Part shown: piece by piece, positions 3,880 through 16,541 of the stretch
Numbering within the stretch: the stretch's first letter is position 1
Layout of the letters: each line of letters begins with the position of its first letter
Virus record (IMG/VR): IMGVR_UViG_3300031452_000005
DNA: 64,000 nt
Origin: a virus
Direction: 5' to 3' (one strand)
The notes under the pieces: model-generated
What the model was told of the DNA's origin: nothing
What the model saw: the letters and a program-made list of their open reading frames with translations, nothing else
Databases searched by the model: none
Program-made: the position numbers and the translations under genes

Positions 3880-4290
3880 ATGGCCTCCCACGCGACGCTG
3901 GCGGCGGCCGTGGACGCCCTACGCCAGCGCCTGGAAGATGGCGCGGACGCGGCGCTCAAGGCCGTGGGCGACGCGTGGGCCGAGGAAGCGTCGGCGCTCG
4001 CGCCCGTCGATACGGGCACGCTGGCGCGTAGTCTCGTTTTCGTGCCCACCGCACACCTGACGGGCGAACTCAGGATGGTCTACTACGGCGCCATTGTGCG
4101 CGCGGGCGTCCCCGCCCATACCGCCGTGCGCGTCCTCACCGCGACCCACACGCGGCCACAGGCGTCGTTCGCGCCTGCCCCGCACAAGGGACAAGGGGCA
4201 AACGACTTCATCGGGCGTGCGTGGGCCTCTGAGCGTGTCCGTGCGGTCCTCGCACAGTTCGGGACGTACACTTTCACCCCTGGACTTTGA
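3880..4290 (+). CDS. HK97 gp10-like neck/tail completion protein
   Basis: LAPVDTGTLARS motif characteristic of the HK97 gp10 family; GGAGG RBS. Confidence 0.8.
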   Translation: MASHATLAAAVDALRQRLEDGADAALKAVGDAWAEEASALAPVDTGTLARSLVFVPTAHLTGELRMVYYGAIVRAGVPAHTAVRVLTATHTRPQASFAPAPHKGQGANDFIGRAWASERVRAVLAQFGTYTFTPGL

Positions 4291-5275: not shown

Positions 5276-6778
5276 ATGCCAAACTACGCGGCATCGCGCG
5301 TCGTCGTCAACCCCACGCAGGTCGCCACCCAGTTGTCGGCCGGCACGGCGGCCAATACCGTCCTGGCCCTGTTCATCGCCCCGCAAGGGCCGGACACGCC
5401 GACCCTGTTCTCTCCGGCGCAGGGCGGCCAGCTGTACGGCGTCCCGTCCTCCCCCGCCTCGGTCGGCTACACCGGCCCGCTCGGCATCACCATCCTGGGC
5501 CAGCAGTCGCAAACGGCGCGTTCTTCGCCTATCAACATCATGGGGTGTCGCACCAACGTCACGCGCGCGCAGGCCACCGTGGGCGGCCTCACCGTGCAGG
5601 GCGTCGGCCTCTACGCCGGCAGCAAGGGCAACAGCCTGGCCGTGCAGTACACCGCGACCACCACCGCCATCACCTCCGTCACCGTCGTGGACACGAGCAA
5701 CGCCAACGCGCCCCTGCTCACGATCACGAACGCGCAGGCGACGGCGGGCCTTGGCAGTTGGGCCGCGATCCAGTTGGCGATCAACGGCGCGCAGCCGGTC
5801 GGCAACCTGGCCTCCGTGGTCTACGTGTCCGCCGTCAACACGGCGGCGCTCTATCCCGGCACGCCGCCCGCCGCGCCAGGCACGGCGCTGATAGGGGGTG
5901 TGGACAACAACGGCGGCGGCGCGGCCGACGCGACCGTGGCCTCCCTGCTGAATCAAAGCCTGCCCTTCCGCGCCGACTATATCTGGGCCGGCTTCGACGC
6001 GGCGACCATCGCCCCCACGCTACTGACGCACCTGGCGGCGGCGCAGGCCGCCAACCAATTCCGCTACGCCACGCTTGGCCCGGCGGCGGGCACGGCCTAC
6101 ACGAGCCTGTCGGGGTCGTACACGACGCCGTTCCTGGCCGACACGCTGCAATGCATGGCCCCCGACCTGGGCATCCTGGGTCCGGGGTCGAGCACCCCCG
6201 GCGGCGGCGGCGGCGTGGTGGACGGCTTCTATCTGGCCGCCGCCGTCAGCGCCCTCAAGGCCACCGGGCGTCGGCGCGTGACCTGCAACAAGAACCAGCC
6301 GTTGGCTGGTTTCGTGGGCTTTGGGCACACCGGCCTGGCGGGCGCGCCGACGCCACCACAAGCGCAGGCGCTGGGCCAGGCCGGGACGGTCGTGCTGCGG
6401 CAGGCCATCAATGGCGGTCCCATCACCATCGCCGACAACATCACCACCACGCCCGAATACCCCGCCGGTTCGTCGCAGGTCAACATCTTCTACGAGGTGT
6501 CGATGCGCGACGTGGATAACGCCGTCAAGGCCGACCTGTACCAGGCGGTTGACCCGTTCAGCGGCCAGGCCCGCCTCGACAGCGCGAGCGACGTCGCCGA
6601 CATCACCTACGCCATCGACCGCGCCGTGTCCGGCATGGGCGACAACATCAACGGCTACGGCCCCAACGGCGTCCAGTTGTCCATCAACCCGACCACCGGC
6701 AACCCCCAGGCCGCCGTCAACCTCCTCTACCCGTTCCCTTATGGCGAGATTGACATAACGCCCATCGTCAGCATTTGA
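5276..6778 (+). CDS. tail sheath protein
   Basis: About 500 aa, sheath-type C-terminal region (AQALGQAGTVVL...ITIADNITT...VSMRDVDN); directly upstream of tube gene. Confidence 0.85.
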   Translation: MPNYAASRVVVNPTQVATQLSAGTAANTVLALFIAPQGPDTPTLFSPAQGGQLYGVPSSPASVGYTGPLGITILGQQSQTARSSPINIMGCRTNVTRAQATVGGLTVQGVGLYAGSKGNSLAVQYTATTTAITSVTVVDTSNANAPLLTITNAQATAGLGSWAAIQLAINGAQPVGNLASVVYVSAVNTAALYPGTPPAAPGTALIGGVDNNGGGAADATVASLLNQSLPFRADYIWAGFDAATIAPTLLTHLAAAQAANQFRYATLGPAAGTAYTSLSGSYTTPFLADTLQCMAPDLGILGPGSSTPGGGGGVVDGFYLAAAVSALKATGRRRVTCNKNQPLAGFVGFGHTGLAGAPTPPQAQALGQAGTVVLRQAINGGPITIADNITTTPEYPAGSSQVNIFYEVSMRDVDNAVKADLYQAVDPFSGQARLDSASDVADITYAIDRAVSGMGDNINGYGPNGVQLSINPTTGNPQAAVNLLYPFPYGEIDITPIVSI

Positions 6779-6903
6779 TACGCCGACGATAGGGGCGGGG
6801 TAGACCACCGCTAAGAGCGGGCTATCGGGCGACGCATAGACGCCCACACACGACACGCGCGCCCCACACGAGCGGGCGCGCCGTACCCATCGAGGAGTCG
6901 CAC

Positions 6904-7739
6904 ATGGCGACAGGCAGACCTGTCCTCTCGCAGGGCATACACACCTACATGCGAGACGGCAACCGCACCAACAAGCGTCACGCCCGCTACGGCCAGTTGT
7001 ACCTCAATAGCCAGATCATCGGCGGCGTGCAGATGTTCAACTACCGCGAGACCAACGGCACCCACCTGGAGCCGGAAGGCGGCTCGGACTACAACGAGAT
7101 CGTCGTGGGCCAGCGCCAGTTCAGCGTCACGCTGCGTCGCCAGATGGTGCGCGGCTCCGACCTCGCCGAGATGGTGCGCAACGAGTTCCCCGATGTGCAG
7201 GATGTCGATTTTAGGGACTTACCCTTCGTCTTACGGTATCACTACCTATACACGAGTGCTACTAATAAGACGAAGTACGAAGATGCGACGTTCGTCTGCT
7301 AGATGCGGCGTCCTGCATCGGTAACGATGCAGTTAAATGTTGGAGAACTCGGGGAACGCTGAGATGTGGCGCGTGAGCGTCCGCCAATCCCGAACCTTCG
7401 CTACAGTACGCGCAAGCGAAAAAATCTCTCTGAGATTATCTGTAGAGGGCGTAGAGACTATGCGCCAACCCCCGCGCGAGCGGGTGAAGATATAGTCCGA
7501 CCTTACGGGAACAACAACCGTAAGAGCGTGCCAGAAATGTGTACGCCTATCGCGTTTATGCGTGCGATTAGTAACAAAATGGGCATATGAGCGACATTTC
7601 CATCAGCGATTACGCATGGGGCTACGACAGTCCCAACGGACTTCTGACTGAGAACTTCACCGCTATCTCACGCGGGTATGGTTTCTCCGACGACGGCAAG
7701 CAGAGCCGCGGCGTTGCCAAGGCGCTGCTCGGCAACTAA
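6904..7739 (+). CDS. tail tube protein, split: join(6904..7292,7583..7739), 181 aa
   Basis: Exon 1 resembles tube proteins but stops at 7302; removing 7293-7582 restores the frame (...YEDAT-L-HMSDISISDYAWGYDSPNGLLTENFTAISRGY...GN*). Confidence 0.85.
7293..7582 (+). ncRNA. group I self-splicing intron, no internal ORF
   Basis: P GAACTCGGGGAAC (7345), Q AATCCCGAACC (7386), R GTAGAGACTA (7451), S GAAGATATAGTCCGA (7486); P7 GACTA/TAGTC, P3 GTTGG/CCAAC, P2 CTGCATCG-GTAA-CGATGCAG, P8 CCCGC-GCGA-GCGGG, P9 CTTACGG/CCGTAAG; U7292.G7307 in P1; P10 GCAT/ATGC; terminal G7582. Confidence 0.92.
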
Positions 7740-8929
7740 TCGGCGTCTTCAAGTGAGAAGGACATTTGCCCGTCGTTTGACACCGCGCGTTTGCGCTCGG
7801 ACGACAGACGGCGGGCTTCCGTCCATTTCGCGCGCCATTCCGGGTCGGCCCACAATGCTTTCTTGGCTTCCGCGTGCTTGGCTTTGTTGTCGGGATCGGA
7901 GAAATGTGCGCGATGTCCCGCCATCTTCTTCTCAACGGTCGCGGGGTCACGCAAGTTAGCCCTGACATCAACACCTTGCGCTTTTTGCTCCGCGATATAG
8001 GCCGACAACCCCGCGCCGATCTTGGCGCGTGTCTCAGCGGTACGCTCTTGTCCCATGTGCGCCTCAGATTGTCGCCGTAAGGACTCAGGAGTATTGGCCG
8101 CACGTCGGTTCGCGGACATCGTGGCGCGCGTTGCGTCCGATACGGCATGCCCTGTGCTTGCCGCCGCTAACTTCGCGCGGTATTCTGGGTTGGCCGACCT
8201 TTTCTTGTCTGCCGCTGCCATGCGTGCCTTCATCTCAGGGCTACGCTTCTGGCCCTTGTTGGCGGCAGATACCTTCGCGCGCGCTTCGGGGCTATTGGTC
8301 TTGCCTAGGTGCGACTGGCGCATCTTTTCGCGCACTTCGGGCTTGCCCAATGCTTCGGCTCGCCGCGCATTGTTATATGCCTGTTGTTCAGGCGTGCGAT
8401 TGCGCGCCGCCGCGATAAGCGCCGCTGTACATTTGGGTAGCCATACCGCGTCATCGTTGATGCGATGACGTTCCCATCGGGCCAATTGGATGGCCGATAG
8501 GCGCTCTCGCAGAGCGGCAGGGCGTTTTTGCCCAAGCACGCGTTTCCGCGCCGCCGTACGCATTTCTAGGGTCCAACTCTCGGTACTTATCCCATCGCCA
8601 CCGCGCGTCGCATTGACCAAGTGGCATCCGATTGACAGGTAATACTCAATCAATCGGATTTCTTCCAGCGCGGCGAGTGCATTAGTCGGATGAACGTGGA
8701 GGACGGCCATGGTTGGCCGCAACCCGCGTTGCATCAGAGACTTGATCCAATTGTTTTTATATGTCATGGCGCGAAGCGACGACGGGCGCATGTGTTCTTG
8801 CAGTCGACGCTTCGGCTTGTCCGTCTTGCCGACGTACCGCACGTCACCCGTATCGGGTTCGTTGAGCGTGTACGTGTAAACGGGACGTGCGACGGTCATG
8901 GGGAGGTCGTACACTGAGGATAGGTCCAT
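7736..8929 (-). CDS. GIY-YIG homing endonuclease with NUMOD3-like repeats
   Basis: YTYTL...RYVGKT...RLQEH...LEEIRLI...LVN catalytic pattern; repeated GKTNSPEARAKVS-type DNA-binding motifs. Confidence 0.9.
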   Translation of the reverse strand: MDLSSVYDLPMTVARPVYTYTLNEPDTGDVRYVGKTDKPKRRLQEHMRPSSLRAMTYKNNWIKSLMQRGLRPTMAVLHVHPTNALAALEEIRLIEYYLSIGCHLVNATRGGDGISTESWTLEMRTAARKRVLGQKRPAALRERLSAIQLARWERHRINDDAVWLPKCTAALIAAARNRTPEQQAYNNARRAEALGKPEVREKMRQSHLGKTNSPEARAKVSAANKGQKRSPEMKARMAAADKKRSANPEYRAKLAAASTGHAVSDATRATMSANRRAANTPESLRRQSEAHMGQERTAETRAKIGAGLSAYIAEQKAQGVDVRANLRDPATVEKKMAGHRAHFSDPDNKAKHAEAKKALWADPEWRAKWTEARRLSSERKRAVSNDGQMSFSLEDAD

Positions 8930-9074
8930 AGCTAGGCACCTCTGCTGTGGGCTTAGAAGCGTCGGGGTGTTAGTTGCACTTACCGGCGCTTCGTTGTGTC
9001 TTATCTCCTCTCATTATACCACTTTCACCCCTGCATCCTTCATTTTCGGCCCCATTTAGTAAGGCGCGGTTTAC

Positions 9075-9533
9075 GTGGACGACACGGGCACCCTTCTGTT
9101 TTTCGGCGCGCTGGGTCCCATCGTGGCGCCAGTGCTCTACGCCGACCAGGAATGGGAGGCCGAGTGGCACATCCTCGACTACGAGGAGCGCTGCACCCTG
9201 GACGAGCGCGTCGCCCGCGTCCCCCTTATCCATCAGGACAAGGCGCGCAAGGCCATCCGCATCGCCATGGCCCTGCGTAAGGTCAATGGGCGGCGTGTCA
9301 CGTTCCACGGCGAAGATGAGCAGGAGGAGTTCCTGGCGCGCATGCAGTGGCTTGACACGTACCCCGAGCCGTTCGTGGATGCCGTGTACTACTCCTATCA
9401 ACTGGCCGAACAGAAGCCCGTCGTCCGCCGTCAACAACTGAGCCAAGACCCAAACGTACCGGCCCCCTCGCACGGGGGCAATGGCGACACCTCCGCGACA
9501 GCGGACACTTCAACGGTCCCGACCGCCGACTGA
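9075..9533 (+). CDS. tail assembly chaperone (G)
   Basis: Between tube and tape measure genes; carries a slippery site near its 3' end. Confidence 0.75.
   Translation: MDDTGTLLFFGALGPIVAPVLYADQEWEAEWHILDYEERCTLDERVARVPLIHQDKARKAIRIAMALRKVNGRRVTFHGEDEQEEFLARMQWLDTYPEPFVDAVYYSYQLAEQKPVVRRQQLSQDPNVPAPSHGGNGDTSATADTSTVPTAD
9449..9479 (+). promoter_or_regulatory. programmed -1 ribosomal frameshift signal giving GT product 9075..9868
   Basis: In-frame C CCA AAC heptamer (9449-9455), 6-nt spacer, GCCCCC-TCGCAC-GGGGGC hairpin; -1 frame open to TGA 9868 (RGQWRHLRDSGHF...LTPYEWAY...), overlapping the tape measure ATG. Confidence 0.8.
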
Positions 9534-9864
9534 CCCCCTACGAGTGGGCCTACGTCTCCCTCAACCGTGAACTTGACGAGGATGAACGGCAGGCCGAGCG
9601 CCGCGAAGATAAACTGGCGGCCTATGCTATCGCGCATAACCCCCAGGCCGCTTACGAGGCGCTGGTGCCCGATGGCGGGCGGCGCGACCCGGCCGAAGCC
9701 GAGGACGAGTTCTTCGAGACCGACCCGTGGTGGATCGACGCGCCGGCCATGATCGGCGACCCCGCCGATTATGACGGGATGGGCGACGACGACAACCCTG
9801 CCAGCGCCGTGGGCGTTGGCGGGAACGATGACGACGTAGACGACGGGTGGGGCCTGAGAACACG

Positions 9865-12800
9865 ATGAGCGAGAACGAAAACGTCGGCATCGAACTGGGC
9901 GTGGACGCCGACGCCGCGCTCACCACGTTCCAGGAGTTGACAGCGGCGGCGCTCACGGCCGACGAGGCCATCCAGCAACTCAAGCAGCATCAGGTCGAAT
10001 TAGCGAACGCCATCCCCGGTAATCCCCAGGCGTCGTCCTACACCGAGGTGGCGACACGTTTCCAGCAGATGGACCCGTCGCTCATCCGCGACACGTATCC
10101 TGAGATCGCCCAGACACAAAATGCCCTCAATGCGCGGCGTACCGAGGTTCGGGCGCAGGCCATGGATTTCGTCGGCGCGAATCCCCAGGTCGCCGCGCAA
10201 CCGCTCCCCGACACGCTGGCCCAGTTCCAGCAGGCCATGGCCCAGCGGGAGCAGCAGCAGCAGGCCCAGCGGGAGCGGCAGGCCCAGCAGCAGGCGGCAG
10301 GTGTTATCCCCCCCGCGCGCTATGGTAGCGAGACGGCGCCCGTTCTAGCGCCCCCAGTCGCGACGGCGGGAGCGGCGCCGCAAGGACTGCCCACGGTCGG
10401 CCCCTCTGTCTCGCCGACGAACACGCCGCCATCCCTGCCAACGCCGACGCCGACGGGCGTCCCCGTGAGTGTCCCTCTCGCCACGACGGGCGATGAGCGC
10501 CTCGCGCAAGCCCTAACGGCGCACAGCCAACCCCCTGCCACGGCGACGGCAACCGCGACGCCTGATGCCACGACCGACGCTATGCCTGGCGCGACCACAG
10601 GCGCGGCGCCCCAGCCCATGCCGATACCCGTGGGCGTCCAGCCCGTCGCTCCTCTTGCCACCACGGGCGATGACCGCCTCGCGCAAGCGCTGACGACTCA
10701 GAACCAGCCAGCTGCGACGGCGCCCCCGGCAACAGCCGCCCCGGCCGATGTCGCGGGACCATTGCCAGAGACCTTTGAGGAATTGGCGGCGGCGGCCCGT
10801 GCCGCCGACACCCAACTCCAGGGACTCAAGCAGCGACTGCTCGATGCGTTCAACGCCATCCCCCGTGGGTCACAACCGGAGGCCGCGTCCTATGGTGAGG
10901 CGGTGGGGCGACTGCGGCAGATGGACCCGTCCGTCGTTCAGGAATTGCACCCTGATATCACTCGCACGCAGGGCGCCATCAACGCCCGGCGCGACGAACT
11001 CACCGGGCAGGTGAGCCACTTCGCCGCTGACAACCCCGAGGCCGCCGCTGAACCCCTGCCCGCGCAACAGGACATGCTCACGCGCTGGCAAGACCTGCTG
11101 CGGCAGCACAACGCGCAGCAGCAGGCCGCGACGGGGCCGGGACAGGGTGGCGGCGACGGACAGGGCGGCGACGACGCCTTGCCCAATGCGGGCGGCGCCA
11201 CATACTACCGCCAGAGCGCGCGCTCTGGCCCTTTCGTGCCCCCCGGCATGGAACGCCTGGCCCGCTTCGGCTACGACGCGACCCAGCAGATGGACGCCCA
11301 CGATGCACGCCAACGGTCGGGCCTGCCCGGCATCAACGGCGGCGGCAACAGTGGTAACGGCGGCGGCAACGGCAATGACACAACACAGCAGGACAGGACG
11401 GCCACCGTCCTGAGCGAACACATCGCGCAGGCGCTCACGCGCGGCGCGAGTGGCCTTGTCGCGGGCGGCATCCAGGGCGCGGCCAACGCGGCCGGTCTGG
11501 GCGCCACCGGCGATATTGTCGCCGGGTTAGCACGCCCTCTGATGGGTTTGATGGGTGAGGCCACGTTGCCCCTGGCCGCCGCCGCCGCTGTCGGTGGCGC
11601 GGCCCTTGGTGTGGGCGACCTCCAGGCCAAATATACCACTGATCGTCAGAGTTTGGCCGGATCTATCGGCACACGGAGCGGAGCCACGCCGGGCAGTGAG
11701 TTGTCAACGGCCATGCATGCCGGCTGGCCGTTCGATTTCAAGGAGGGGGAGAGCGCGGCGGCCGCACGCCAGTTAGGGCTGGCCGGTGTCGATTCGTCGC
11801 AGCTTGGGGGCGGGCTCGACGCGTCGATGGCCCTTGCGCGCCATGGCGGCATCGGGCTTGACCAGGCGACCAGCACCGTCGGCGGGCTTATGCAATCTGG
11901 GATGTCGGGCAATCAGGTCGCCGACTACCTCGCCACGCTCGACCAAGCCGCTCGGCAGACGGGGGTCTCCGTTACTCGACTTGCGGAAGGTGTGACGCAT
12001 CTCAACCAGGCGGCCGGCGTCGGGCAGATTAGCATCAACGGCCTGGCGGCGGCCCAGGCGCTCACGGACCGGACGGGGACCAAGATCGACATAGGGCAGG
12101 CTATGTCCGGCGCTATCGGCGCGACGGGCACGACAGCCCTCGCACAAGGCGCGTTGCTTGGCTTAAATCCGGCGCAATTCGAGACCGCGACCCAGAACCC
12201 TGCCGTGCTACTGGATAGTTATGCTAACCTTGCCCGCCGGTACGATGTCGGCACGGGCGGCGTCCAGGTCGCCCAGCAGGCGATGTCGGCGGCCGGCTTC
12301 GACTTCTCGAAGATGGACAGCCATCAAGCCGATGTGTTTACGCGCAAGTTGGTCGCGCAAGGCCCCCGCGCCGCGCAAGCCTACGAAGACAGCATCACCA
12401 AAAAGGAGCATGCTCCGGGAGCGCCGGGGCCGCACACAGGGGCCGATTATATCCAAGCCGGCAAGACGATCGCGGACGCCATCACGGGACCAACGGCCAA
12501 GCTGGGCATCGTGCTCGACGCGGGCGCGGCGGCCTTGGGTAACGCGGCGGGCGCAATCAATCGAGCGGTGGCGCGCTCCGATCCGCGTTACGGCCTGAAT
12601 GGAACGGACACCAGCGCCGGCCCGAACCCCTACCATATCCAGCCGACGCGGCCTCTACAGGGGGACAACACGGTCCCCTTAGCGCCCCTCTCCCCCTACG
12701 ATCTTGGTATCCATACCATTGGGTCAGCACCAGCGCCGACGCCCCCTGGCTTCGTGCCCAACCTGCCCGGCTTGGTAGCGGCCCAATATCAAGGGTTGCA

Positions 12801-13434
12801 AGTGCCCAATCTCGCGGGCAGCGAACAATACGCGTCGCCTGCCATCGTCAACGACATCGTGTCAGCGGCGCGTGCGGATAAGCTTTCTCCTGGGCCGATG
12901 TTGGCCCAGGCGGCGCAAGAATCGGGCTTCAATCCCAATAATCGGGCGAAAGACGGAGGGACGGGGCTTTTTCAATTCACGGACCCAGCCGTAAGTCGGG
13001 AATATTTAGGGCAAGCATCCCATGAGTTGCATCGCACGATGCCGTCTGACTGGCATCAAGCCGCTCTCGACCCGCAGGTTGCGTCACGCGCCGCCGCCGA
13101 CTACGACAAAGCCTTACTGCAAGGCACGCACGGCAACTGGGCGAAGGCGGCGGCTCAGTTTAACGCGGGGCCACATGGCTGGGATCTGACGAACAAGCCG
13201 GGGCAGGGCCAGATGTACGGCATCGGTGTCGCGGGCAATGGCGAAACGGTCCAGCATCAACTCGCCATTAGCGTGACGGTGCAAGACCAAAATGGCAATA
13301 AGGTGGGGCAAACCAAGACGCAGCACAACATCAATACGTCGAAGAAGGTGGTCGCCGCGCAAAGTTATGGTCCGCAAGATAACTCATCACCCACGGTGGG
13401 CTTGCCCCTTGGCTTGCCTGCCCGTATCAAGTAG
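9865..13434 (+). CDS. tape measure protein with C-terminal lytic transglycosylase (SLT/GH23-like) domain
   Basis: ATGA overlap with GT stop; long Ala/Gly/Gln-rich body; QESGFNP...GLFQF...AQFNAG transglycosylase motifs. Confidence 0.88.
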   Translation: MSENENVGIELGVDADAALTTFQELTAAALTADEAIQQLKQHQVELANAIPGNPQASSYTEVATRFQQMDPSLIRDTYPEIAQTQNALNARRTEVRAQAMDFVGANPQVAAQPLPDTLAQFQQAMAQREQQQQAQRERQAQQQAAGVIPPARYGSETAPVLAPPVATAGAAPQGLPTVGPSVSPTNTPPSLPTPTPTGVPVSVPLATTGDERLAQALTAHSQPPATATATATPDATTDAMPGATTGAAPQPMPIPVGVQPVAPLATTGDDRLAQALTTQNQPAATAPPATAAPADVAGPLPETFEELAAAARAADTQLQGLKQRLLDAFNAIPRGSQPEAASYGEAVGRLRQMDPSVVQELHPDITRTQGAINARRDELTGQVSHFAADNPEAAAEPLPAQQDMLTRWQDLLRQHNAQQQAATGPGQGGGDGQGGDDALPNAGGATYYRQSARSGPFVPPGMERLARFGYDATQQMDAHDARQRSGLPGINGGGNSGNGGGNGNDTTQQDRTATVLSEHIAQALTRGASGLVAGGIQGAANAAGLGATGDIVAGLARPLMGLMGEATLPLAAAAAVGGAALGVGDLQAKYTTDRQSLAGSIGTRSGATPGSELSTAMHAGWPFDFKEGESAAAARQLGLAGVDSSQLGGGLDASMALARHGGIGLDQATSTVGGLMQSGMSGNQVADYLATLDQAARQTGVSVTRLAEGVTHLNQAAGVGQISINGLAAAQALTDRTGTKIDIGQAMSGAIGATGTTALAQGALLGLNPAQFETATQNPAVLLDSYANLARRYDVGTGGVQVAQQAMSAAGFDFSKMDSHQADVFTRKLVAQGPRAAQAYEDSITKKEHAPGAPGPHTGADYIQAGKTIADAITGPTAKLGIVLDAGAAALGNAAGAINRAVARSDPRYGLNGTDTSAGPNPYHIQPTRPLQGDNTVPLAPLSPYDLGIHTIGSAPAPTPPGFVPNLPGLVAAQYQGLQVPNLAGSEQYASPAIVNDIVSAARADKLSPGPMLAQAAQESGFNPNNRAKDGGTGLFQFTDPAVSREYLGQASHELHRTMPSDWHQAALDPQVASRAAADYDKALLQGTHGNWAKAAAQFNAGPHGWDLTNKPGQGQMYGIGVAGNGETVQHQLAISVTVQDQNGNKVGQTKTQHNINTSKKVVAAQSYGPQDNSSPTVGLPLGLPARIK

Positions 13435-13992: not shown

Positions 13993-15240
13993 TTAGAGTG
14001 GCAACGCGAGTTGTTCGCAAGGTGTCTGTTTATTTTCGCGCTTACGCTCGTGAGCGGCTTTAACCGCAGCGATTCGTTTCTCTTGAAAAGCAGGATCAGC
14101 CAATTTCGCTTTGAGCCGTTCAATCCTCTTTGCTTCAACTATGGGGTCGTTTCGCAGTTTCGTCATTGCCGCTCTCAACGTATCCTTATCTTCGGCGGTT
14201 AAGACGCGGTTATTGTTTTGGTGACCGCGTATGTACGTGCGCTTATAGCCTTTCGGTCCTCGCGCATTCATTAAGGTGTTACACGCACATGCACACAAGA
14301 TTTGCTCTGGTGGCAGTTTCGCCCTCTCGGCCTTTAACGTAGCATTACGCGCTTGGTGCGCTGCCGCTATCTTGGCCCGTGTTTTAATTAAATGATGAAC
14401 ATCGCCGCTTGCGCGTCTTTTGGTCCATTCATCTTTTAAGCGTTCGCTGCACTTCTGGCGAAACTCTGGGGTCTGCGATGCGGCCTTCACTTTTGCTAGA
14501 GTTTCATCGGAGCGGGCGCGCATTGCTTTGCTGATATTGCGCCGCGCCTCACCAGATACGACAAAGCCTTGTTCGCGTCTCAAGTCCGCTCTTTCTTTTG
14601 CGGCGACGCACAAGCGTGCACGAGTTTCTTCGCTGATAGGTGCAATACCACCATTAGCGCGTCGCCATTCATATGATGCCTTAGCTGATGCAGACATTTT
14701 GGCTCTCACATCTGGATTGGATTTGATGGCGTTGTTGCCTGCCTTGGATATTCTTTCCCTATCTTCAACACTTATATGGGATGCGCCTAAAAGGGCTCTT
14801 TGGCGTCGGGCTTCCGGCGTCATGGCAAGGTAAGCGGCACGCATGTTTGATCGCCCTTGCTCGCTTATAGGCTTACCCCTCTTTGCGTCAGCACTCCTCT
14901 TGACGACTTCGGGTGGTTGCTTGAAGCCAAGAGCACCTTCACCGCCATCTGTATGGTTGGTTATATTAACGCCGATGGAGCGAAAATAGGCGATGAGGCG
15001 TTTTCCCTCAACGCACGCGGCTGTATTGTTAGGCCACTTTACCAACCCCGTAAGAATAGGCTTCGCTCCTTGGGCCATCAGGCGCTTTATCCAACGGTAT
15101 TTTCGTGTTCTGCTCTCATGCTCATATAAGCGACAATGCTGCCAGTAACGATGCTGAGGATTAAGAGCTTTGCCGACATACCTGATGTCGAGTGTAAAAG
15201 GGTCTTGAAGTAAATAGGTCCATACAGGCTTTGTTGTCAT
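13993..15240 (-). CDS. GIY-YIG homing endonuclease with NUMOD3-like repeats
   Basis: WTYLLQDP...RYVGKA...RYWQH...VEGKRL...ITNHTDGGEG; GGAGG RBS before ATG 15240; related to 7736..8929. Confidence 0.88.
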   Translation of the reverse strand: MTTKPVWTYLLQDPFTLDIRYVGKALNPQHRYWQHCRLYEHESRTRKYRWIKRLMAQGAKPILTGLVKWPNNTAACVEGKRLIAYFRSIGVNITNHTDGGEGALGFKQPPEVVKRSADAKRGKPISEQGRSNMRAAYLAMTPEARRQRALLGASHISVEDRERISKAGNNAIKSNPDVRAKMSASAKASYEWRRANGGIAPISEETRARLCVAAKERADLRREQGFVVSGEARRNISKAMRARSDETLAKVKAASQTPEFRQKCSERLKDEWTKRRASGDVHHLIKTRAKIAAAHQARNATLKAERAKLPPEQILCACACNTLMNARGPKGYKRTYIRGHQNNNRVLTAEDKDTLRAAMTKLRNDPIVEAKRIERLKAKLADPAFQEKRIAAVKAAHERKRENKQTPCEQLALPL

Positions 15241-15312
15241 CTCAACCTCCATGCGTGATGGCTGGCAACTCTACATTGCCAGCCATCCATCTAGTACTCG
15301 CACGCGCTCCAT

Positions 15313-16265: not shown

Positions 16266-16541
16266 ATGATGAGTGTCGCGGATCGGTTCATACCGCATAT
16301 CGAGAAAGTGGATATTGAGTACTTCGCGCTAGATGAAGCAGCTAGGCGCGCTGGTTATAAATCAACAAGCACGTTACAGGCGGCAGCACGAAGCGGTCGC
16401 CTGCGAACGCTTATGGGCGCCGGCAAACCGCCCTATTTAACTTCTCAGCCTTGGCTAGATGACTACCTTGCTGGCTTGCGGTTCAACACGCAGTTCCGGG
16501 GCAAGCCGCGCGGGACCGAAGATGATGAGGTGATGGAGTGA
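16266..16541 (+). CDS. excisionase-type (HTH_17-like) DNA-binding protein
   Basis: FALDEAARRAGYKSTSTLQAAARSGRL winged-helix pattern; divergent from the promoter. Confidence 0.7.
   Translation: MMSVADRFIPHIEKVDIEYFALDEAARRAGYKSTSTLQAAARSGRLRTLMGAGKPPYLTSQPWLDDYLAGLRFNTQFRGKPRGTEDDEVME

Follow-up and report, generated by a model that had tools for sequence, protein, structure and literature searches.

The window analysed here, a 64,000-nucleotide stretch of DNA, comes from an uncultivated myovirus and carries at 6904-7739, on the forward strand, a tail tube gene whose reading frame is broken by a 290-nt insertion. Exon 1 (6904-7291) is preceded by a GAGGAG Shine-Dalgarno sequence at 6892-6897 and supplies 129 codons plus the first base of the Trp130 codon, and exon 2 (7582-7739) supplies the last two bases of that codon, 51 further codons and a TAA stop. 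The segment between them (7292-7581, forward strand) has the features of a group I intron without an open reading frame (ORF), and its GC content is 53% compared with 63% for the window. The tail sheath gene (5276-6778, forward strand) lies directly upstream of the tube gene, with a tail completion gene (3880-4290) further upstream. On the other side, a free-standing GIY-YIG/NUMOD3 homing endonuclease gene of 397 aa (7736-8929, reverse strand) stands tail to tail with exon 2 and overlaps its stop codon, and a tape measure gene (9847-13434) that includes a lytic domain follows downstream. A search of sequencing runs matched the stretch to rock-metagenome DNA runs only.

The tail tube gene and its homologues

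Automated gene calling does not recover the tube protein. The ORF list of the window holds only a 132-aa ORF (6904-7302) and a 50-aa ORF (7587-7739), the 181-aa tube being absent, and public gene calls on sister contigs split the gene likewise into hypothetical proteins of 133 and 50 aa. An earlier reading of this DNA, made from the sequence only (hereafter the sequence-only reading), had anticipated that the ORF track would stop at 132 aa and that annotation would miss the gene, and both sets of calls agree with it. A search with the exon 1 product returned three relatives, namely P0001 (133 aa, 99% identical), which is truncated like exon 1 of the window, and two continuous proteins that are colinear with exon 1 and also cover exon 2, P0002 (182 aa, 90% identical) and P0003 (186 aa, 71% identical). 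The same identities hold for the proteins of the intronless alleles found in other contigs (90% for L004, 71% for L005 and L006). Homologous tubes that end at the exon 1 stop without aligning to exon 2 had been named beforehand as the observation that would speak against an intron, and P0002 and P0003 instead span exon 2.

The identification of the split gene as a tail tube gene, also made in the sequence-only reading, rests on its predicted fold and on its neighbours. Neither the exons nor any of the 26 homologues that were found by exhaustive HMMER search and aligned have a Pfam or PHROG match, and the protein family itself is small, with 29 representatives in 1.8 billion proteins. Across IMG/VR, JGI metagenomes and GTDB genomes it was found only at intronless loci like that of P0003, and none of these was in a bacterial genome. 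An AlphaFold (AF2) model of the intronless homologue P0002, built from the 26-sequence alignment, reached a pLDDT of 84.6, and its best PDB match in Foldseek is the tube of phage 812 (probability 1.00, E 1.6e-7, TM 0.73 by target), with further matches at probability 1.00 to the tubes of PVC, AFP, T4 gp19, pyocin and others. The upstream gene at 5276-6778, which likewise has no Pfam or PHROG match, was recognised as a sheath gene from its ESM Atlas comparison with Phage_sheath_1/1C clusters (feature score 0.97-0.98; TM 0.60-0.67), and the order sheath, tube, chaperone and tape measure is present in the window. The tail tube label is thus supported by the fold matches together with the sheath gene upstream and the tape measure gene downstream.

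Boundaries of the intervening sequence

The position of the insertion was established by aligning the DNA of the window and of a second intron-bearing phage type with the intronless alleles. This second type is represented by L001, to which L002, L003, L023 and L028 are identical, so two distinct intron copies are compared here. At the junction site, all three intronless alleles (L004, L005 and L006) read ACGT-GGCA, and because only the removal of 7292-7581 reproduces this sequence, the intervening sequence is 7292-7581 and not 7293-7582, the interval given in the sequence-only reading, which is hereby shifted one base to the left. The spliced 181-aa product aligns end to end with the intronless proteins P0002 and P0003, with Trp130 restored. 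Removal of 290 nt had been predicted to leave an uninterrupted 181-aa frame, and it does so in either register. [quoted passage not shown]

In the earlier register, the intron would be equally real, with the cut after U7292 (paired with G7307) and exon 2 starting at G7583, and the exons would join as ACGUU-GCAU with a TTG codon for Leu130. The RNA pairing accommodates this well, as U7292.G7307 too is a wobble pair, the intron could equally end in a G (G7582), P1 and P10 are contiguous and form a neater stack without a mismatch, and the product is likewise 181 aa long; in the corrected register, G7582 stands opposite G7307, so that P10 begins with a one-base mismatch beside P1. However, the junction ACGTTGCA occurs in no intronless allele, L004, L005 and L006 all reading ACGTGGCA, and in the alignment of 26 homologues the column is Trp in 18 and Leu in none. 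Moreover, excision of an intron acquired by homing or reverse splicing should give back the sequence that preceded its entry. We therefore regard the earlier register as improbable. On the evidence of the intronless alleles and the conserved Trp codon (TGG), the cut would fall after U7291, paired with G7308, and the terminal G (omega G) would be G7581 on the forward strand; relative to its one-base alternative, this alignment-based register is very probably the right one. In this way, intronless alleles can decide between splice registers where RNA pairing by itself permits more than one.

Several further features were seen around the insertion site. One tube homologue, P0020 (137 aa, 35% identical), ends exactly at the conserved Trp, and it could be another tube split by an intron at the same site or simply the end of a contig. 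The approximately 75 nt of exon 1 before the insertion (window 7217-7286, L004 2719-2788) are AT-rich and contain rare codons. This upstream stretch is about 97% identical between the intron-bearing L001 and the intronless L004, while the genes are otherwise 75-84% identical, and the alleles diverge sharply right 3' of the insertion site. The jump in identity could mark an old recombination or conversion boundary.

Fold and conservation of the intron

At the curated gathering threshold, no Rfam family matches the whole 64-kb window. At E<=0.1, the only match among 4,227 families is the group I intron family RF00028, which is placed at 7286-7524 with 26.1 bits (E 0.014) in the window-wide search and scores 26.1-26.6 bits (E 7e-5 to 1e-4) when local stretches are searched. 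The Rfam check recommended in the sequence-only reading thus gave a divided answer: group I is the sole family found, and its score of 26 bits stays below the curated RF00028 cut-off of 50 bits, at which Rfam misses the tube intron. Within the alignment, posterior probabilities are high for J6/7-P7 (AGAGACUA) and J8/7-P7' (GAAGAUAUAGUC). The P1 part of the Rfam alignment is poor, shifting with the stretch searched and containing non-standard pairs, and the splice site was not placed from it. The unconstrained fold of the intron is more stable than that of shuffled sequences (z = -3.75).

The helices were assigned by hand and verified by a pair check in Python and a constrained fold in ViennaRNA; all lie on the forward strand. 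P1 pairs 7287-7292 with 7307-7312 (G-C, A-U, C-G, G-C, U.G, U.G), its 5' strand containing the splice-site U (7291) and the first intron base (U7292). The sequence-only reading had this helix right, and only its U.G at the cut was one base off, the pair being U7291.G7308. The P1 loop contains the in-frame TAG (7300-7302) that ends the unspliced frame of exon 1, just 5' of the internal guide sequence (7303-7312), in which 7307-7312 pair with exon 1 and 7303-7306 with exon 2 at 7583-7586 (P10, as earlier proposed). P2 (7313-7332) has 8 bp and a GUAA tetraloop, and was confirmed by pair check and constrained fold. The 5' strand of P3 (7339-7345) pairs with 7463-7469, as supported by the pair check and the Rfam alignment. 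P4 (7349-7393, with 7349-7354 paired to 7388-7393) encloses J4/5 and the P5 hairpin (7366-7384, with 7366-7372 paired to 7377-7384 and a GUGA loop). In the constrained fold, P6 (7395-7449, with 7395-7399 and 7402-7406 paired to 7440-7449) contains P6a (7409-7418, GCAA loop) and P6b (7423-7437).

J6/7 is followed by the P7 5' strand GACUAU (7456-7461; high Rfam posterior), which pairs with 7492-7497 and includes G7456-C7497, presumably the guanosine-binding pair by analogy with Tetrahymena. A single base (7462) then leads into the 3' strand of P3 (7463-7469) and on to P8 (7471-7484, 5 bp, GCGA loop). J8/7 and the 3' strand of P7 (UGAAGAUAUAGUC, 7485-7497) make up the most conserved segment of the core, invariant across 11 related introns. 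P9 (7502-7524, 7 bp; pair check and constrained fold) is followed by P9.1 (7526-7546), with the conserved loop CAGAAAUG at 7532-7539, and by P9.2 (7547-7571), the latter two from the constrained fold. The intron therefore has P3-P8 and P4-P6 domains, a P3/P7 pseudoknot and conserved J4/5, J6/7 and J8/7, and the complete core claimed earlier can be drawn, with all helices from P1 to P10, in both the window and L001. Because only base 7462 separates P7 from P3', there is no room for P7.1 or P7.2, the extra helices between P7 and P3' that mark subgroup IA2 (T4, SPO1 and Twort introns), and on this criterion the tube intron falls outside IA2.

The second variant allowed us to follow how the fold has changed. 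The L001 type differs from the window in 23 of the 290 intron bases and in two nearby exon bases, and 9 of the 23 belong to a replaced P1 loop. Four pairs carry double compensatory changes (one in P1, one in P3 and two in P8), where 0.115 were expected, and this number was reached in none of 20,000 permutations that placed the same number of substitutions at random. Only one pair is broken, compared with 6.5 expected (P = 0.0025; pair statistics computed in Python). In L001, the P1 pair G7290-C7309 has become C-G and the P3 pair U7340-A7468 has also become C-G. Five changes of the wobble type keep the pairing, namely in P2 (U7318-A7327 to U.G), P3 (G7345-C7463 to G.U), P6b, P9.2 and P10 (A7303-U7586 to G.U), and the single broken pair is U7397.G7447 at the base of P6, which has become U-U. 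Judged from these two variants, the compensatory substitutions imply ongoing selection on the RNA fold. The central claim of the sequence-only reading, that a group I intron splits the tube gene, agrees with the P1-P10 fold, the sole Rfam family, the compensatory changes and the intronless alleles.

The P1 loop is the sole segment to have been replaced wholesale, 9 of 10 bases differing between window 7294-7303 and L001 6394-6403. The in-frame stop is nevertheless kept at the same codon, as TAG in the window and TGA in L001, and its retention despite the replaced loop suggests that stopping ribosomes immediately ahead of the guide sequence is under selection. A contig from run X6 (corresponding to 7239-7511) shows a third combination of the intron substitutions. 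The rock metagenomes X2 and X3 each contain phages of both the window type and the L001 type, at similar depth. In four DNA runs (region 6800-9200), exons 1 and 2 were never found directly joined in a contig lacking the intron, a result to be read with the fact that contigs cannot show absence.

The exons are conserved as coding sequence on both sides of the insertion. All 31 codon changes that separate exon 1 from its L001 counterpart are synonymous. In exon 2, 8 codon changes are synonymous and 3 alter the amino acid, from which we conclude that exon 2 is translated. By these counts, purifying selection acts on both exons in two lineages that differ by about 15%. The weakest alternative, a decayed or inactive group I remnant that leaves either a tube made in two pieces of 132 aa and 50 aa or a dead gene, could appeal to the Rfam score under the curated cut-off and to the in-frame ATG at 7587 in exon 2, where gene callers predict the 50-aa ORF, but we consider it very improbable given that no core helix is disrupted in either variant, that the substitutions are compensatory, that the exon 2 changes are largely synonymous and the ATG at 7587 has no Shine-Dalgarno sequence ahead of it, that the splice junction falls within the long beta strand 125-145 of the P0002 model, and that a myovirus needs its tube.

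The conserved core also leads to introns in other virion genes. Among IMG/VR contigs, 23 contain the exact 20-mer that runs from J8/7 through P7' into the start of P9, two of them belonging to the L001-type phage, and nhmmer extends the core similarity over 100-160 nt (E 4e-7 to 2e-6 for L007, L017 and L014). Rfam calls group I introns in contigs bearing the 20-mer, three of them above threshold. In at least seven contigs (L007, L008, L014, L017, L020, L022 and L029), the interrupted gene codes for a major head protein, and the head genes concerned belong to phrog_1357, 267 and 9953. The P8, P9 and P9.1 helices of these introns differ in sequence and pair perfectly at the same offsets: P9 is formed by seven different helices of 6 to 7 bp at one offset, different P8 hairpins occupy the same place, and in L007, L017 and L029 the P9.1 stem covaries fully while its loop CAGAAAUG is kept. 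These introns thus share the P8-P7'-P9 layout and the 20-mer with the tube intron; they differ from it in splitting capsid genes, in that several carry endonuclease ORFs, and in that P1-P6 cannot be aligned by sequence. The shared motif suggests that introns with the 20-mer may form a clade favouring highly expressed virion genes, and a compact clade marked by the 20-mer and the P9.1 loop may be under-detected by Rfam. Taken with these relatives, the tube intron suggests that the record from cultured phages underestimates how common introns are in the late structural genes of uncultured ones.

Predicted splicing, possible mobility and known systems

We interpret the locus, with a probability of roughly 0.88, as a group I intron of 290 nt, lacking an ORF, that interrupts the Trp130 codon behind its first base in the tube gene of an uncultivated myovirus found in rock metagenomes. 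Catalysis and splicing in vivo, as well as any role of the endonuclease, are here what we infer from the insertion site, the fold and its covariation, the tube identity and the selection on both exons. The pre-mRNA would fold into a ribozyme with helices P1 to P10, in which the guide sequence (7303-7312) would first bind exon 1 by P1, placing U7291.G7308 at the cleavage site, and later exon 2 by P10. Splicing would begin when an external guanosine, bound in P7, attacks after U7291; the freed 3'-OH of exon 1 would then attack after G7581, and the exons would be joined as ACGU-GGCAU to give an mRNA for the 181-aa tube protein. Ribosomes on unspliced RNA would halt at the TAG at 7300-7302. As the unspliced mRNA, stopping there, lacks the last 51 residues, which contain four beta strands, tube production should depend on splicing.

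Collaborative homing is defined by endonuclease cleavage at the intron insertion site. The gene abutting exon 2 is a homing endonuclease gene by its matches to Pfam GIY-YIG (24.7 bits, cut-off 22.6) and to the homing endonuclease family PHROG 314 (1e-15), and some sources list homologues of the 397-aa protein as group I intron endonuclease. The window and L001 copies are 84% identical. Intron and GIY-YIG gene are both present in the window, L001-3, L023 and L028 and both absent from L004, L005, L006 and L030-34, although this co-occurrence is a small sample, with two lineages that have both and two that have neither. In the intronless loci, the next tail gene follows the tube about 100 nt downstream, without an endonuclease gene between them. 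The GIY-YIG gene has probably accompanied the intron in its inheritance and perhaps also in its spread. The adjacency could, however, be a coincidence, because the window has several other free-standing endonuclease genes.

Such genes of the HNH and GIY-YIG types are found elsewhere in the tail module, at 2085-2735 and 13993-15252 in the window and at 1-627 and 11365-12351 in L005, their positions varying among relatives. Two possible traces of co-conversion were considered and rejected: GC3 dips near the junction in the intron-bearing alleles but does so in the intronless L004 and L005 too, and the identity between the window and L001 shows no sharp tract.

By analogy with known pairs, the intron may be partnered with the abutting gene in collaborative homing, a suggestion that we rate as possible and on balance doubtful. 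The fuller proposal, in which the pair acts on a virion gene and the intron also comes from an undescribed compact clade specialising in late genes, is a little more speculative still and should be taken as tentative. If it is true, the endonuclease would cut the intronless tube alleles of co-infecting relatives at Trp130, and the intron would shield its own genome.

Established examples of collaborative homing are the ORF-less psbA intron of cyanophage S-PM2 with the free-standing endonuclease F-CphI, and a DNA polymerase intron of T7-like phages with a free-standing endonuclease (PMC3984707; PMC6083498). The tube intron shares with these pairs the lack of an ORF, the adjacent free-standing endonuclease gene and the co-occurrence of the two, whereas the endonuclease here is of the GIY-YIG/NUMOD3 type and lies on the opposite strand, unlike those of the S-PM2 F-CphI and T7-like pairs.

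The closest precedent for the host gene is phage Twort, in which orf142 is the tail tube gene and contains three group I introns (PMC11878797). The Twort record has the sheath as ORF011 and the tube gene starting at 16272, followed by three RF00028 matches of 64-101 bits. Like the tube intron, the orf142 introns are ORF-less and lie in a tube gene directly downstream of a myovirus sheath gene, and phage 812, the best PDB match of the tube model, is Twort-like. The systems differ in that Twort has three introns scoring 64-101 bits and the present phage one intron of 26 bits in a genome of 63% GC, and sequence similarity to the Twort introns is limited to a 12-nt J8/7-P7 motif. ORF018, downstream of the Twort tube gene, has no Pfam match, so no parallel endonuclease is claimed. 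With the intron as query, blastn (distant mode) recovered nothing from 50,697 phage records.

Mycobacteriophages of cluster J offer the nearest parallel in size and setting. A minor tail gene of BAKA and Optimus contains an intron of 265 bp without an endonuclease gene, the capsid gene of LittleE also contains an intron, and splicing of the cluster J introns was shown by RT-PCR and protein sequencing (PMC3706429). In common with the tube intron, these introns are small and ORF-less, interrupt virion structural genes of high-GC phages, were found by means of intronless relatives, and show a final U in exon 1 and a final G in the intron; the cluster J genomes are, like the window, rich in free-standing homing endonuclease genes. 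Their host genes are siphovirus minor tail and capsid genes, in contrast to the myovirus tube gene studied here, for which splicing is predicted from the fold and the alleles. Together with the capsid-gene relatives, the Twort tube and the BAKA and LittleE introns are precedents which indicate that the sequence-only reading understated the matter in calling introns in late genes few. As introns in phage tail and capsid genes are already known, the finding mainly corrects annotation; it is nothing new in kind. What it contributes is a repaired annotation, a corrected splice register and a lead to relatives in capsid genes. It also adds a high-GC, rock-dwelling myovirus to the few phages in which making the tail tube would depend on splicing.
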